Virus genome (UHGV): UHGV-1428848
Reading direction: 5' to 3' (one strand)
Source: a virus
DNA: 64,000 nucleotides
Shown: piece after piece, positions 44,875 to 51,142 of the stretch
How positions within the stretch are numbered: position 1 is the stretch's first letter
Layout of the letters: every line of letters starts with the position of its first letter
Notes under the pieces: generated by a model
Seen by the model: only the letters and a program-made list of their open reading frames with translations
Database searches by the model: none
What the model was told of the DNA's origin: nothing
Translations under genes and position numbers: made by a program

Positions 44875-45144
44875 TTATCTAAGTAAACAGTATGCTTGGA
44901 ATACTTTCTCCATCATCTTTTTAAATTCATGAATATCTATATAATGACTAGTTAGATCAGCATGATATAAAAAGTCTAAAAACTTTTCATGTGTACTAAC
45001 ATATTCACTTTCATTTAATTCAGAAACATGGCTTTCCCAATATCCAACACCAGTCTTATTTGGGAAAAATGAAATTTTCATGTATTGGTCAACATAGAAA
45101 ATGCCATAATTTTCAATAGTAATAGAAATATTAATAAATTTCAT
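44875..45144 (-). CDS. hypothetical protein (89 aa)
   Basis: ORF track. Confidence 0.45.
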   Translation of the reverse strand: MKFINISITIENYGIFYVDQYMKISFFPNKTGVGYWESHVSELNESEYVSTHEKFLDFLYHADLTSHYIDIHEFKKMMEKVFQAYCLLR

Positions 45145-45356
45145 ACATTCATCAACTTAGCCGCTTCAAGAGCTGCATCTAGTGAATCAAATTGATCAAC
45201 ATATTCAATCAATTCGCCGTAATTAGCGTATAACCACCATTGGCTAAATTCATACTCAAGGATGAATCCATTTCCTTCAATTTGAGTTAAACCAATGCCA
45301 TTTGTATTTACTTCATACCCAGCAAGACGTAAATCGTTAATAAGAGCTTCGTTCAT
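45141..45356 (-). CDS. hypothetical protein (71 aa)
   Basis: ORF track; ATGA coupling. Confidence 0.45.
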   Translation of the reverse strand: MNEALINDLRLAGYEVNTNGIGLTQIEGNGFILEYEFSQWWLYANYGELIEYVDQFDSLDAALEAAKLMNV

Positions 45357-47342: not shown

Positions 47343-47813
47343 TTAATCATGTGTCCACACCCCATCGGTATTTGACCAAAGTCGCTGATTATCTGATCCT
47401 CGCCACAGCTTTTTGGTCGGAAGATTTTTCTCATACTTCCCATCAATAATAACATCAACATATTTAAGCATTTCTAGTTGTTTAATATCTTCAAACTTAT
47501 ATCCTGTCCACAACCAAATGCTTTTACTGGGATAAAGATTTTTTACTGTTTGAACAATGCAATGAATCACGTCTCTGTTATCAGGATAAAGAGGGTCACC
47601 TCCGGTTATAGTTAATCCTTCTATATAATCATTATTCAAACATTCAATTAATTGCTCTAGTGTCTCTCCAGTGAATGGAATACCATTTCTAGCATTCCAT
47701 GTTGATTTATTATAACACCCTTCGCATTTATGCAAACAACCTGTAACGAAAAGAACGACCCTGCATCCAGGGCCATTCACAAAATCACAGGGATAAAATC
47801 TATCGTAATTCAT
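47343..47813 (-). CDS. nrdG: anaerobic ribonucleotide reductase activating protein (radical SAM)
   Basis: 156 aa as in T4 NrdG; Cys cluster CRVVLFVTGCLHKCEGC. Confidence 0.85.
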   Translation of the reverse strand: MNYDRFYPCDFVNGPGCRVVLFVTGCLHKCEGCYNKSTWNARNGIPFTGETLEQLIECLNNDYIEGLTITGGDPLYPDNRDVIHCIVQTVKNLYPSKSIWLWTGYKFEDIKQLEMLKYVDVIIDGKYEKNLPTKKLWRGSDNQRLWSNTDGVWTHD

Positions 47814-49089
47814 TGGTGTTTAACCCTATGCATGATTTCTTTATTTTTACCGAGATTAAATCCGCGCTCGTTCGGATTTCCCAAATAACCACATGTTCTT
47901 CTTATGGTATTCATCTTTTTAGGATCAGTTTCTCCACAAATAGAACAAACAAATCCGTTTTCAGTAGGAGTCATTTCATGGGTGCTTCCGCATGTAAAAC
48001 ATTTATCTACTGGCATATTAACACCAAAATAATCTAAATGCTGTGCAGCATAATCCCATACAGACTCAAGACCTTTTAGGTTATTTTTCATATCAGGAAG
48101 TTCAACATAAGAAATGTGACCGCCTGTCGCAATGAAATGATATGGCGCTTCACGAGAAATCTTTTCAAACGGAGTAATATTTTCTTCTACTGAAACATGG
48201 AAACTATTAGTGTACCAGCCTTTATCAGTAACATCTTTTACACTTCCATATTTTTCAGTATCAAGTTTACAGAAGCGATAACAAAGGTTTTCAGCGGGAG
48301 TAGAATACAAGCTAAAAGCAAAACCGGTTCTTTCAGTCCACTGTTTAAGACGAGCATTCATTTTAGTTAAAATTTCCTGTCCAATATCACGACCGACAAG
48401 AATATTCAATTCGTGAATACCAATGTATCCTAGGGACACTGAACTTCTACCGTTTTTAAATAACTCAATTATGTCGTCATCAGGTTTAAGACGAACCCCG
48501 AATGCACCTTCTTGGTAAAGAATAGGAGCAACAGTCGCTTTAACTCCTTTTAAGGAACTAATTCTACACATCAAAGCTTCAAAACATAAATCCATTCGCT
48601 CATTGAACAATTCGATAAATTTCTGTTCATTGAACTGTGTTCCAATATAAGAATCTAATGCGATACGAGGAAGATTCAGTGTTACAACACCAAGATTATT
48701 ACGTCCATCAAGAATTTCATTACCAGTCGAATCTTTCCATACGCTCAAGAAACTACGGCAACCCATTGGAGAAACAGGAATAGATGAGCCAGTGATAGCT
48801 TTATTGTTCTTAGCCGAAATGATGTCAGGATACATTCTTTTGCTTGCGCACTCTAGAGCAAGCTGTTTAATATCATAGTTCGGATCGTCTTTGTAAAGAT
48901 TAACACCTTCTTCAACGAACATAACAAGCTTAGGGAAAATAGGAGTTATCCCATCACGACCAAGACCTTTAATACGATTTTTCAGAATTGCTTTCTGAAT
49001 CATTCGTTCAGTCCAGTCAGTTCCTGTACCAAATGTTATAGTAACAAAAGGCGTTTGCCCGTTTGAACTGAAAAGTGTATTTACTTCAT
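47810..49089 (-). CDS. nrdD: anaerobic ribonucleotide reductase (class III), exon 2
   Basis: Glycyl-radical RNR C-terminal region; exon 2 begins AT-GAA-GTA (..Y)EVNTLFSSNGQ after intron 3'-terminal G at 49090; joined product is 605 aa. Confidence 0.7.
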
Positions 49090-50134
49090 CATTATATTCA
49101 GCATGAGTCGCAAATTCATGCCCGTTTATATGAAACAACAAAATTTGGATAGTCCATAGATATGCAACGTTCTTTTATAGTGCTAGGATGAAAATTTAGC
49201 GCTTTAGCTGCTTCTATATAAGACGTATACTTAATACCGTCAACAACCACATATTCAGGAACTTTATGAATAGTAGTCTTAATACTCAAAACAAGAGGAT
49301 GAGTTTCGACTTCACTTTCAGTGCAATTTAAATATTCCGCTGCTTTTTTAAAACTTCTAAAAGTTTTATTTTTAAGCTTTATCGATACTTGTTTTTTACT
49401 TTTTCGACTATTGATATTATTTTGCACATGTTCCTTAGATCTTCTGTTTTTAGCATAATATTCAGCCACAGAAGATTTTATATTGTTTTTATGAGATTCG
49501 GATAACACTTTACCCTTATGAGCATCTCTTAATTTTTGAATATGTTCTTCAGTATCCGGATGCTTATAAAACTTTTTACCGCCTATGGATTTATTTAAAC
49601 ATTTTTTGCTATAAAAATATTTACGTATGACCTCTTCTTCATGTTTTAATGCATCTTTATAACTATCAAATGTTTTTAAAATTATCCATTTAGTAGGTGT
49701 ATCAGTTTTTAAGCGTTCATTTATATACTTAGATGACGTTGTGTAAGTTTTCCAGTTTGTGGGCTTGTTTTTAATTGTTCTAAATTTTTTATAACCGATA
49801 TAAATGTCGCCATTAGAAAACTTAACTAAGTATGTAAATGTGTCTTTATCTTTTATTTTAGTACAACGTCTTTTTATCCATTTCATTGTTTCACCTCGTA
49901 TTCATAAGATAATCTTATTTATACAAGATGACTGCTGCATGTCGCCATGCAGATTAGACTATATCTTCATCTTTCGATGCCGGCCGTTTCGAATAGCATT
50001 AGCTTCTATTCTACACCGCTACATTCATCACGGTTAGTCGTTAGGCATTTAGTTCAAAAGAACATTTAGCACGGGATTGTCTACTAGAGAGGTTCCCCGT
50101 TTAGACCGGTTTTACATGAGCCTGAATTAAATTA
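49090..50134 (-). mobile_element. group I self-splicing intron in nrdD (sunY-type), 1045 nt
   Basis: Starts UAAUUUAAUUCAGG after exon U; contains conserved core AACGGGGAACCUCUCUAGUAGACAAUCCCGUGCUAAAU (as in the T4 td intron); ends ...AAUG; endonuclease ORF occupies its 3' part. Confidence 0.75.
49116..49886 (-). CDS. intron-encoded GIY-YIG homing endonuclease (I-TevII-like)
   Basis: 256 aa entirely inside the intron; N-terminal GIY-YIG-like FTYLVKFSNGDIYIGY; C-terminal helix-turn-helix DNA-binding motif GIKYTSYIEAAKALNFHPSTIKERC. Confidence 0.75.
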   Translation of the reverse strand: MKWIKRRCTKIKDKDTFTYLVKFSNGDIYIGYKKFRTIKNKPTNWKTYTTSSKYINERLKTDTPTKWIILKTFDSYKDALKHEEEVIRKYFYSKKCLNKSIGGKKFYKHPDTEEHIQKLRDAHKGKVLSESHKNNIKSSVAEYYAKNRRSKEHVQNNINSRKSKKQVSIKLKNKTFRSFKKAAEYLNCTESEVETHPLVLSIKTTIHKVPEYVVVDGIKYTSYIEAAKALNFHPSTIKERCISMDYPNFVVSYKRA

Positions 50135-50672
50135 ACTCATAAGCTTGGAATGCATCGTATACATCTTTTTCTGTTTTAGATTGAGCATAATTTAACGCAT
50201 CAGCGATTTGCCATTTTTCTGCGTCCTCAATATGTTTTGCATAGGTGCGTTTAACATAAGGAGAAAGTACTTTATCTACATTAGCAAAAGTCGTTCCGCC
50301 GTATTGATGGGAAGCAACCTGTGCAGTAATTTGTGCCATAATTGCAGTAGCAACTCCAATTGATTTAGGAGTTTCAATCTGTGCATTACCAAGCTTAAAT
50401 CCGTTCTCAAGCATTCCTTTTAAATCTACTAAACAGCAATTAGTAAATGGAAGAGCAGGGGAATAATCAATATCATGGAAATGGATAATTCCGCTTTCAT
50501 GCGCTTTCATAATAAAAGACGGGACCATATTTTTGGCAATGTGTTTAGACACAATACCAGCCATAAGGTCCCGTTGAGTTGGAAAAACACGAGAATCTTT
50601 ATTAGCATTCTCGTTTAAAAGGTCTTTATTAGTTTTATGAATCAATCCTTCAATTTCTTTTTCAATTGTCAT
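50135..50672 (-). CDS. nrdD: anaerobic ribonucleotide reductase (class III), exon 1
   Basis: Exon ends ...GCT TAT GAG T (..QAYE + first nt of Tyr codon); the track ORF continues 2 codons into the intron before a stop. Confidence 0.7.
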
Positions 50673-51142
50673 TTTAAACTCTTTCTAAGCTGCTTCTTAA
50701 ATGAAGCTATTAATTGTGTTTTAGTGTCAGATTCATTATATTCAAATCCTCTTTGAAGCATCTCAGCCATCATTTCCTCTTTTCCTAAACGAGAAAATTC
50801 CTTTGATTTATCTCCAACAAAGTTAGGGTGAATATTATTTTGGGTGTAATCGGATTTTAAATAAGTAAGTAAATTTTCTAACCATTCAAGATAATCAACA
50901 CCTTGCCCCTTTAAGCCAGAACGATTAAATTTATGTTTCATTTGACCTTCTGCGGCATTGCAGAGATTACAAAGCAATCCACGTACCTTTCCTGCTTTTG
51001 GTCCATTTAATTCATGGTCATGGTCGAGGTGATTAGCTTGAACATCAGGATTTAGTTCTCGTTGGCAAATTAAGCATTTACCGTTTTGTGCATCATAAAA
51101 TTTCTGTTTTTCTTCTTTGTATAATTTGCCAGTCAATAGCAT
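50669..51142 (-). CDS. 49: endonuclease VII (Holliday junction resolvase)
   Basis: 157 aa as in T4 gp49; zinc-binding CLICQ...; HLDHDH nuclease motif. Confidence 0.8.
   Translation of the reverse strand: MLLTGKLYKEEKQKFYDAQNGKCLICQRELNPDVQANHLDHDHELNGPKAGKVRGLLCNLCNAAEGQMKHKFNRSGLKGQGVDYLEWLENLLTYLKSDYTQNNIHPNFVGDKSKEFSRLGKEEMMAEMLQRGFEYNESDTKTQLIASFKKQLRKSLK

Follow-up and report, generated by a model that had tools for sequence, protein, structure and literature searches.

The nrdD locus

The window, that is, the whole stretch of 64,000 nucleotides from the viral genome UHGV-1428848 that was analysed, carries on its minus strand an nrdD gene divided in two by an intervening sequence with an ORF of its own (Table 1). 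The start of exon 1 overlaps the stop codon of gene 49 (endonuclease VII), and the stop codon of exon 2 overlaps the start of nrdG. What lies between the two exons is very probably a mobile intron of group I and of the T4 nrdD (sunY) type, inserted into the class III ribonucleotide reductase gene within the Tyr180 codon, between its first and second bases.

Table 1. Features of the nrdD intron locus, in coordinates of the window
Feature	Coordinates	Strand	Description
nrdD exon 1	50672..50135	minus	Codons 1-179 and first base of Tyr180; 3' end ...GCU UAU GAG U
Group I intron	50134..49090	minus	1045 nt; starts UAAUUUAAUUCAGG, ends ...AUAAUG; sunY type
Ribozyme core	49935..50141	minus	P1, P3, P4, P5, P6/P6a, P7, P7.1, P7.2, P8 (GAAA loop) and P9 (GCGA loop)
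P3'-P4-P5-P6 segment	50064..50105	minus	42 nt, intron positions 30-71; matches the td intron of T4, and not sunY, with 100% identity
RNA hairpin sequestering the Shine-Dalgarno sequence	49891..49931	minus	GAGG of the endonuclease gene in the 3' arm
Late promoter motif TATAAATA	49916..49923	minus	T4 late-promoter consensus, directly upstream of the endonuclease ORF
Putative operator-like site UCUUAUGAAUACGAGGUGAA	49890..49909	minus	16/20 bases match the intronless homing site GCTTATGAATATGAAGTAAA
Homing endonuclease ORF	49886..49116	minus	256 aa, UGA stop; I-TevII homologue
3'-terminal hairpin	49101..49121	minus	GCAUGA-AUUUGCGAC-UCAUGC; ORF stop codon inside
P9.0 A-U and terminal G	49090..49092	minus	Pairs with J7/9 A-U at 49953..49954
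nrdD exon 2	49089..47810	minus	Remainder of Tyr180 through residue 605

Left unspliced, the frame of exon 1 runs into a stop three codons inside the intron (..YELI*). Joining U to AU GAA GUA restores the reading ...DAFQAYEYEVNTLFSSNG... and yields 605 amino acids followed by a stop, across a predicted ligated exon junction ...GCTTATGAGT|ATGAAGTAAATAC.... This product aligns without gaps, residues 1-605 on 1-605 and with 1399 bits, to the T4 NrdD of PDB 1H78 and related entries, all of which represent the G580A mutant. The Pfam family NRDD matches exon 1 (profile positions 1-141), both NRDD and Gly_radical match exon 2, and Gly580 of the glycyl-radical site is present. On these sequence grounds, the spliced product is a class III (anaerobic) ribonucleotide reductase NrdD, with a full-length NRDD and a glycyl-radical domain. 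The intronless alleles of T2, RB32, G4498, NBG1 and PhAPEC2 fix both splice sites without ambiguity, and the intronless nrdD CDS has 1818 nt, the same as the spliced one; the junction and the 605-aa NrdD that the first-pass annotation had reconstructed from this DNA agree with both comparisons. An alternative 3' splice site was ruled out by the same intronless alleles.

Ribozyme core and splice sites

The first-pass annotation had described nrdD as split by a group I intron, had quoted the end of exon 1, the start of the intron and a stretch of its core, all of which are present as given, and had named an Rfam scan as a check. When the segment 48900..50300 is scanned alone, the core is detected by RF00028 (Intron_gpI) at 50170..49935(-), over the full model (positions 1-253), with 72.1 bits (gathering score, 50) and E = 5e-18; together with helices from P1 to P9.2 that carry compensatory changes, this match bears out the description. 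Rfam scans across the whole 64-kb window did not report the intron, either at the gathering or at an E-value threshold, a miss that we attribute to loss in the speed filter and not to a real absence, so that a negative whole-window scan should not be read as evidence that the intron is missing.

The intron has no P2 and possesses P7.1, P7.2, P9.0 and a 3' hairpin. In P1 the exon sequence UAUGAGU pairs with the intron sequence GCUCAUG, leaving a U-G wobble at the splice site, which follows this U; the terminal G is the nucleotide at 49090. The core segment AACGGGGAACCUCUCUAGUAGACAAUCCCGUGCUAAAU occupies intron positions 34-71 and P9 reaches to position 200; further downstream follow the ORF (249-1019), the 3' hairpin (1014-1034) and P9.0 (1043-1044), in which A1043/U1044 pair with A181/U182. 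P10 is short, with only 3-4 bp (UUCA with UGAA). For the P9.0 of sunY we refer to Michel et al. (1990), as it stands in the reference list of PMC11417360.

Comparison with the T4 nrdD intron supports these helices by covariation: pairing is retained in 99.1% of the 114 helix cells, and 13 base pairs have changed on both sides, against 0-2 in slid controls and 0/500 in shuffles. The inner pairs of P8 and of the 3' hairpin, which MAFFT left out of register, were excluded from this count and registered by hand in the five-lineage comparison given below. The P9.0 pair is U-A in the window and A-U in T4, a change on both sides.

This structure has to be weighed against a split gene that does not splice at all, in which a free-standing endonuclease gene would divide nrdD and two separately translated pieces would assemble after translation. 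GenBank records indeed give two nrdD CDSs and a 'homing endonuclease', the exon 2 ORF can open from a TTG at 49141, and T4-like phages are known to have genes that the insertion of an endonuclease has split. However, this TTG lies inside the endonuclease gene, with no Shine-Dalgarno motif noticed upstream on reading the sequence, and a mere insertion clashes with the full group I core with its U-G wobble, terminal G, P9.0 and P10, with the compensatory substitutions that maintain the helices, with the exact in-frame restoration within a codon, and with the self-splicing of the homologous T4 nrdD intron. We consider the split gene very improbable and treat the element as a group I intron in what follows.

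The endonuclease ORF and its control region

The intronic ORF combines an N-terminal GIY-YIG domain with C-terminal NUMOD-type DNA-binding modules. The first-pass annotation had called it an I-TevII-like GIY-YIG endonuclease, and the protein is 55.6% identical to I-TevII along residues 1-256 and falls in the 50%-identity cluster of I-TevII in a search of 1.84 billion representatives. The Pfam match (PF19835, GIY-YIG) is marginal, with 26.3 bits for a cut-off of 25. Residues Y19, Y29, G31, E83 and N98 are conserved across 26 relatives; conservation of the canonical GIY-YIG arginine is not obvious. An AlphaFold model reaches a pLDDT of 89.7, and a Foldseek search against the PDB gave no significant match. 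Behind the UGA stop there are 26 nt when the terminal G at 49090 is included, and 25 nt between the stop codon and that G; the distance of 26 nt annotated at first pass holds with the terminal G counted, a trivial difference of wording.

Upstream of the ORF lies the motif TATAAATA, which the record of SA20RB (99.6% identical) lists as a late promoter, and an equivalent late-promoter arrangement has been described for I-TevII (Edgell et al. 2010, PMC2988022). The hairpin that holds the Shine-Dalgarno sequence has a folding energy of -17.8 kcal/mol (z = -4.75), which was equalled by 0/200 shuffles. With its 5' arm situated at the late promoter or upstream of it, this arm would be missing from late transcripts. 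The operator-like site is the single best 20-mer match to the homing site in the window, both strands considered, and sits at a position equivalent to that of the operator proposed for I-TevII (PMC2988022). The T2-type intronless nrdD site reads GCTTATGAATATGAAGTAAATACTCTCTTTAG.

Relation to the T4 nrdD intron

The T4 nrdD intron is a self-splicing element long familiar as sunY, the scaffold of early ribozyme engineering, and its I-TevII counts among the three founding homing endonucleases of phages. The gene, the insertion site, the architecture and the neighbours (gene 49 and nrdG) are in the window as they are in T4, and the spliced protein is almost identical to T4 NrdD, all of which would suit a window that is T4, or that carries a copy of the T4 nrdD (sunY) intron with I-TevII itself. 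The T4 intron (NC_000866 43535..46385) interrupts the same host gene at the same nucleotide (..GAGU|AUGAAG..), shares the subgroup features (no P2; P7.1, P7.2, P9.0 and a 3' hairpin), and likewise has its ORF 3' of P9, with the stop codon within the 3' hairpin, and a TATAAATA late promoter plus a Shine-Dalgarno hairpin upstream of that ORF; the two endonucleases are homologous over their full length. Nevertheless, while the nrdD exons are 95.5-97.2% identical (exon 1, 97.2%), the introns are only 65.9% identical overall, with values of 74% for the 5' ribozyme, 63.7% for the DNA of the ORF and 55.6% for its protein. The lengths also differ (1045 nt in the window and 1033 nt in T4 for the intron; 256 and 258 aa for the ORF), the mobC of T4 is absent here, and megablast of the window intron matched T4 genomes only through the td intron. 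With the alignments refuting T4's own intron, we give this identity practically no credence. By its sequence, the element belongs instead to an uncharacterised lineage that is sister to the T4 nrdD intron and deeply diverged from it, and no paper on this specific lineage came up in the literature searched.

The divergence is also visible in the periphery. P6a, P7.2, P8 and the 3' hairpin differ from those of T4 in sequence and sometimes in length, the promoter hairpin is longer in the window, with a gap of 9 columns in that part of the alignment, and the synonymous changes of the window in the flanking exon 2, at +8 to +20, differ from those of T4. P4-P5 is td-like, unlike that of the T4 nrdD intron.

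Other related introns

The T4 td intron, which encodes I-TevI, shares core sequence and the P7.1/P7.2 helices with the window intron, but it occupies another gene and another insertion site, and its ORF lies within the P6 loop and not 3' of P9. Regulation by a late promoter and a hairpin has been reported for td as well (PMC2988022). Two points here go beyond the first-pass annotation: the intron belongs to a sister lineage and is not the T4 one, and the core segment that had been quoted matches td rather than sunY. The nrdD introns of Felixounavirus and Vequintavirus (e.g. JohannRWettstein and vB_EcoM_SYGMH1) reside in the same host gene family, and their P7/P7.1 is 97.6% identical to that of the window over 42 nt; however, they use a different nrdD site (near ..SPMG|C..), encode HNH endonucleases and carry the ORF in the P6 loop. 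The placement of the window ORF downstream of the catalytic core, which had been recognised at first pass as the sunY-type organisation, is thus confirmed and sets the intron apart from both the td and the Felixounavirus/Vequintavirus introns.

Three further lineages at the same site were found in metagenomes (L009, L012-L014 and L015, with endonucleases P0003, P0004 and P0007). They were reached by an exhaustive HMMER search, whereas a word-index protein search gave two clusters only. An IMG/VR scan with the endonuclease protein alone found nothing; in the same resource, a two-sequence profile and a DNA pattern of the P1 region each found one T4-type contig only. All three lineages share the insertion site of the window (..Q[AG]LE|Y|E[VI]NT..) and its order of ribozyme, ORF and 3' hairpin, with endonucleases of the same family that are 27-37% identical to that of the window, and their host NrdD proteins are from T4-like phages more distant. 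Over the five same-site lineages, with helices registered by hand, 30/61 pairs show two-sided changes and 302/305 cells hold standard pairs. P1 covaries with the exon: it is AUGAGU/GCUCAU in the window and T4 and UUGAGU/GCUCAA in L009, L012 and L015, a U-A where the window has A-U. An equivalent 3' hairpin, with GCGA or GCGG as its loop motif, occurs in all five lineages, with two-sided changes at 6/6 of its pairs.

More tentatively, the Tyr180 site might be home to an ancient family comprising at least five intron/endonuclease lineages of the sunY type, whose endonucleases are 27-56% mutually identical. In the same speculative vein, the window lineage may be a natural mosaic of a sunY-type scaffold and a P4-P5 module acquired from td by recombination, and its I-TevII paralogue may prefer a different target and may act as a repressor at its own promoter by way of the operator-like homing-site copy, which overlaps the ribosome-binding site. 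We see this set of proposals as possible but doubtful.

Distribution and mobility

Among GenBank phages the distribution is patchy, with ~45 carrying the window lineage, ~25 the T4 lineage and ~777 intronless. The intron is 99.5-99.9% identical among phages whose exons differ by 2-4%, a near-identity that argues for recent horizontal spread and against an intron that keeps a functional ribozyme but, with an inactive endonuclease, no longer moves and has entered the decay phase of its homing cycle. Such decay does have a precedent in the T4 nrdB intron with its defective I-TevIII (PMC1865063), and traces of it appear among relatives: the ORF is in two pieces in vB_EcoM_F1 and 236Ecol005PP, and in U5 the ORF, which is of the T4 type, is matched from residue 41 onwards only. 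The ORF of the window, in contrast, is intact, as are its promoter, its Shine-Dalgarno sequence and the regulatory hairpin; it has the GIY-YIG residues conserved and 99.2-99.6% identity to those of ~30 other phages. An inactive endonuclease is accordingly unlikely in our view, and a mobile intron is the reading that we prefer.

A co-conversion footprint is found in exon 2, where 11 differences from T4 fall in the first 60 nt and 46 in the other 1220 nt (Fisher p = 3e-5), with lineage-specific synonymous changes at +14, +17 and +20. These changes and the excess divergence beside the intron are consistent with co-conversion that was initiated by cleavage on the exon 2 side. I-TevI cleaves upstream of its insertion site and I-TevII downstream.

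Proposed splicing and homing

Self-splicing, endonuclease activity, the position of cleavage and late expression would all be expected by homology with T4. In the pre-mRNA, the 5' ribozyme core of ~200 nt would fold, the internal guide GCUCAUG and the exon end UAUGAGU would together form P1, with the U-G wobble located at the splice site, and exogenous guanosine would attack after the splice-site U. The 3' end, 800 nt downstream and past the ORF, would be recruited by the 3' hairpin, the 2-bp P9.0 with J7/9 and the short P10; the terminal G would then dock and the exons be ligated, giving the mRNA for the 605-aa NrdD. In T4, nrdD is dispensable during aerobic laboratory growth, so a splicing-impaired intron could persist for some time.

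On early read-through transcripts the endonuclease is probably silent, because its ribosome-binding site would be locked in the hairpin, and it would probably be translated from late-promoter (TATAAATA) transcripts that lack the 5' arm. In a mixed infection, it would be expected to cut an intronless nrdD a few bases into exon 2, and repair of the double-strand break would transfer the intron to the recipient together with the first ~20-60 nt of exon 2. A gp55.1-like site at 45322..45307 may be an ectopic target of the enzyme.

Significance

The element is of an ordinary kind and leaves the current picture of how these introns function unchanged. It constitutes a second natural lineage at the same nucleotide as that of T4, from which it has diverged by 34% at the RNA and by 44% at the protein level. 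In most GenBank records of the variant, nrdD appears as two genes, where a joined CDS is called for. Together with the three metagenomic lineages, the window lineage forms a comparative set that supports P9.0 and the 3' hairpin and reveals variable peripheral elements. The specificity of I-TevII is far less studied than that of I-TevI, and this set supplies natural variants for its study.

Splice junctions and gene layout

Without splicing, the exon 1 frame of nrdD runs into a stop codon three codons inside the intron (..YELI*). Exon 1 ends in GCU UAU GAG U, the intron opens with UAAUUUAAUUCAGG and closes with AUAAUG, and exon 2 begins with AUGAAGUAAAU. The exon end, the intron start and the position of the 256-aa ORF proposed in the first-pass annotation were all recovered on reading the minus strand, with 26 nt left after the ORF stop codon, terminal G included. 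Joining the exons yields a 1818-nt CDS and the 605-aa NrdD that had been anticipated, which aligns at full length and ungapped with the T4 NrdD crystal structures (1-605 to 1-605), the alignment suggested as a check, and which retains the radical glycine, Gly580. The intronless alleles of T2, RB32, G4498, NBG1 and PhAPEC2, whose CDSs are 1818 nt long, read ...GCTTATGA(A/G)T ATGAAGTAAAT... and thus fix both splice sites with no ambiguity.

Layout of the nrdD region
Feature	Coordinates	Strand	Remarks
gene 49 (endonuclease VII)	51142..50669	-	Pfam Endonuclease_7 and T4 dimerisation domain
nrdD exon 1	50672..50135	-	
intron	50134..49090	-	1045 nt
endonuclease ORF	49886..49116	-	256 aa
nrdD exon 2	49089..47810	-	
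nrdG	47813..47343	-	Pfam Fer4_12, Radical_SAM

nrdD and nrdG share an ATGA (47810..47813) in which the stop codon of the first overlaps the start codon of the second, with no homing endonuclease gene between them in the window. T4 carries mobC (633 nt) there, and SA20RB, an otherwise similar phage, an 840-nt 'MobC' gene.

The ribozyme and its covariation

A scan of a 1.4-kb region with the Rfam group I model, another of the checks proposed, detected the core along the full RF00028 model (50170..49935(-), 72.1 bits against a gathering score of 50, E = 5e-18). When all 64 kb of the window were scanned, Rfam reported no group I intron with either the gathering threshold or a cut-off of E <= 0.01, because the speed filters lose the match. 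Had the whole-window scan alone been used to judge whether the model detects the core, as the first-pass annotation would have allowed, the finding would have been wrongly disfavoured, and further structured RNAs in the window could escape such scans likewise.

Read directly, the structure lacks P2 and has a P1 in which exon UAUGAGU pairs with GCUCAUG of the intron, the pair at the splice site being a U-G wobble. It continues with P3, P4, P5, P6/P6a, P7 (GACUA/UAGUC), P7.1 and P7.2, a GAAA loop on P8 and a GCGA loop on P9. A 2-bp P9.0 joins J7/9 to the two bases preceding the terminal G, P10 has 4 bp (UUCA with UGAA), and the endonuclease stop codon lies in a 6-bp hairpin of the 3' tail.

With this structure supplied to the count, the window and T4 introns together show pairing in 99.1% of 114 cells, and 13 of the 57 pairs differ on both sides, which none of 500 shuffles reached; sliding the partners by 1-3 columns as a control left only 0-2 two-sided changes. 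The changes fall in P3, P4, P6a, P7.1, P7.2 and P9.0, and re-registering the 3' hairpin by 1 nt adds four more two-sided pairs (GCAUGA/UCAUGC in the window, GUAGAG/CUCUAC in T4). Across five lineages, two-sided changes affect 30/61 pairs and 302/305 cells are standard pairs, a count biased towards the structure by the manual choice of helix strands. P1 changes in step with the exon (AUGAGU/GCUCAU versus UUGAGU/GCUCAA), the P9 loop is GNRA in all five, and every lineage has a different 3' hairpin stem below a GCGA or GCGG loop motif. Sequence comparison therefore provides strong evidence that selection maintains the intron RNA as a ribozyme, and the covariation independently supports the 3' splice site. 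Two loop motifs conserved among lineages while their stems vary are candidate tertiary contacts: the 9-nt P7.2 loop AAGCNAWUG (49996..50004 (-)), shortened to AAGC in T4, and the GCGA or GCGG of the 3' hairpin (49107..49115 (-)).

Relation to other phage introns

The T4 nrdD intron (NC_000866) is inserted at exactly the same nucleotide. The exons are 97.2% (exon 1) and 95.5% (exon 2) identical between the two phages and the introns 65.9% (74% in the 5' ribozyme, 63.7% in the ORF DNA), with an endonuclease 55.6% identical to I-TevII. These intron and endonuclease identities led us to reject the possibility that the window simply carries the T4 intron; on such comparisons, it is a sister lineage.

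With the intron as megablast query, the only match to T4 genomes was a 42-nt segment at intron positions 30-71 (50064..50105 (-)), covering P4, P5, the P3' strand and the 5' side of P6. The T4 td intron is 100% identical here, whereas the T4 nrdD intron shows several differences, which suggests a domain exchange between nrdD and td introns. In many phages with the window-type intron, the record contains another match as well, probably a td intron. The nrdD introns of Felixounavirus and Vequintavirus (L004, L005) are 97.6% identical over another 42 nt, positions 83-124 (50011..50052 (-); P6', P7 and P7.1), but are inserted elsewhere in nrdD (near ..SPMG|C..), and their ORFs, placed in the P6 loop, encode HNH endonucleases.

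A probable homing footprint in the exons

Compared with the intronless consensus, both intron lineages have G for A at position -2, which creates a G-C pair in P1. They also depart from it at +14, +17 and +20, with different bases in the two lineages at +14 and +17, and T4 is additionally changed at +8, +11 and +15. The changes from +8 to +20 are all synonymous. Exon 2 differences between window and T4 are concentrated in the first 60 nt (11/60, versus 46/1220 in the rest; p = 3e-5), and SA20RB, with a 99.6% identical intron, shares exon 2 from +1 to +22 with the window and diverges beyond. The I-TevII cleavage site lies 13-15 nt downstream of the point of insertion. The exon 2 footprint is what co-conversion from a cut on the exon 2 side would leave. 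A published account states only that I-TevII cuts at a distance from the insertion site (PMC1865063).

The endonuclease and its probable control

The annotation of the ORF as an I-TevII-like GIY-YIG enzyme agrees with its 55.6% identity to I-TevII and with its Pfam domains, SegE_GIY-YIG (26.3 bits, cut-off 25) and NUMOD1; a set of 26 relatives conserves Y19, Y29, G31, E83 and N98. Upstream of the ORF lies TATAAATA (49923..49916), together with a hairpin at 49931..49891 (-17.8 kcal/mol, z = -4.75); the Shine-Dalgarno GAGG is in the 3' arm of this hairpin. According to Edgell et al. (PMC2988022), read-through transcripts hide the ribosome-binding site and late ones start within the hairpin, freeing it; operator sites resembling the homing site have also been proposed in that review. 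The best 20-mer match to the intronless homing site in the entire window (49909..49890, 16/20, unique) falls exactly on the Shine-Dalgarno region.

The 16 nt of the spliced junction from -2 to +14, GTATGAAGTAAATACA, recur without a mismatch 3.8 kb away at 45307..45322 (-), where they encode ..GYEVNT.. in a gp55.1-like 71-aa ORF (45141..45356 (-)); T4 gp55.1 has the same sequence (L002 1405-1420). We estimate a chance expectation of ~2e-4 per window, and the copy could be a coincidence or an ectopic or decoy target for the endonuclease.

To the anatomy, homology, covariation, distribution and co-conversion footprint observed here, T4 adds by analogy a working cycle, in which guanosine-initiated self-splicing would yield NrdD mRNA, the endonuclease would be expressed late and, in mixed infections, would make a double-strand break in intronless alleles, whose repair would copy the intron into them.

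Distribution and significance

In the phage collection, the window lineage occurs in ~45 records at >=95% identity (99.9% for the HY03 intron), the T4 lineage in ~25, including T4 strains, PST, fPS-2, RB55, RB59 and U5, and the uninterrupted junction in ~777. In U5, the T4-type ORF is matched only from residue 41 onward. The endonuclease ORF matches in two pieces in vB_EcoM_F1 (MT682712 / NC_054912) and 236Ecol005PP (PP434423), where it is probably frameshifted, so some copies may be decaying.

When 1.84 billion protein representatives were searched exhaustively with a profile, only three further full-length endonuclease relatives emerged, all on metagenomic contigs at the same nrdD site (L009, L012-L014 and L015), with ribozyme, ORF and 3' hairpin ordered as in the window; these enzymes have 257-267 aa and are 27-37% identical to the window's. 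The exon 2 gene call of L015 (609 aa) is much longer than the 426 aa of T4.

We found no description of the window lineage in the searchable literature. In most of its records, nrdD is entered as two CDSs, accompanied by a 'homing endonuclease'. Elements of this kind are textbook material, and dozens of deposited genomes carry this lineage, usually annotated as a split gene. It is not surprising, but specialists on sunY and I-TevII gain a useful set of natural variants.
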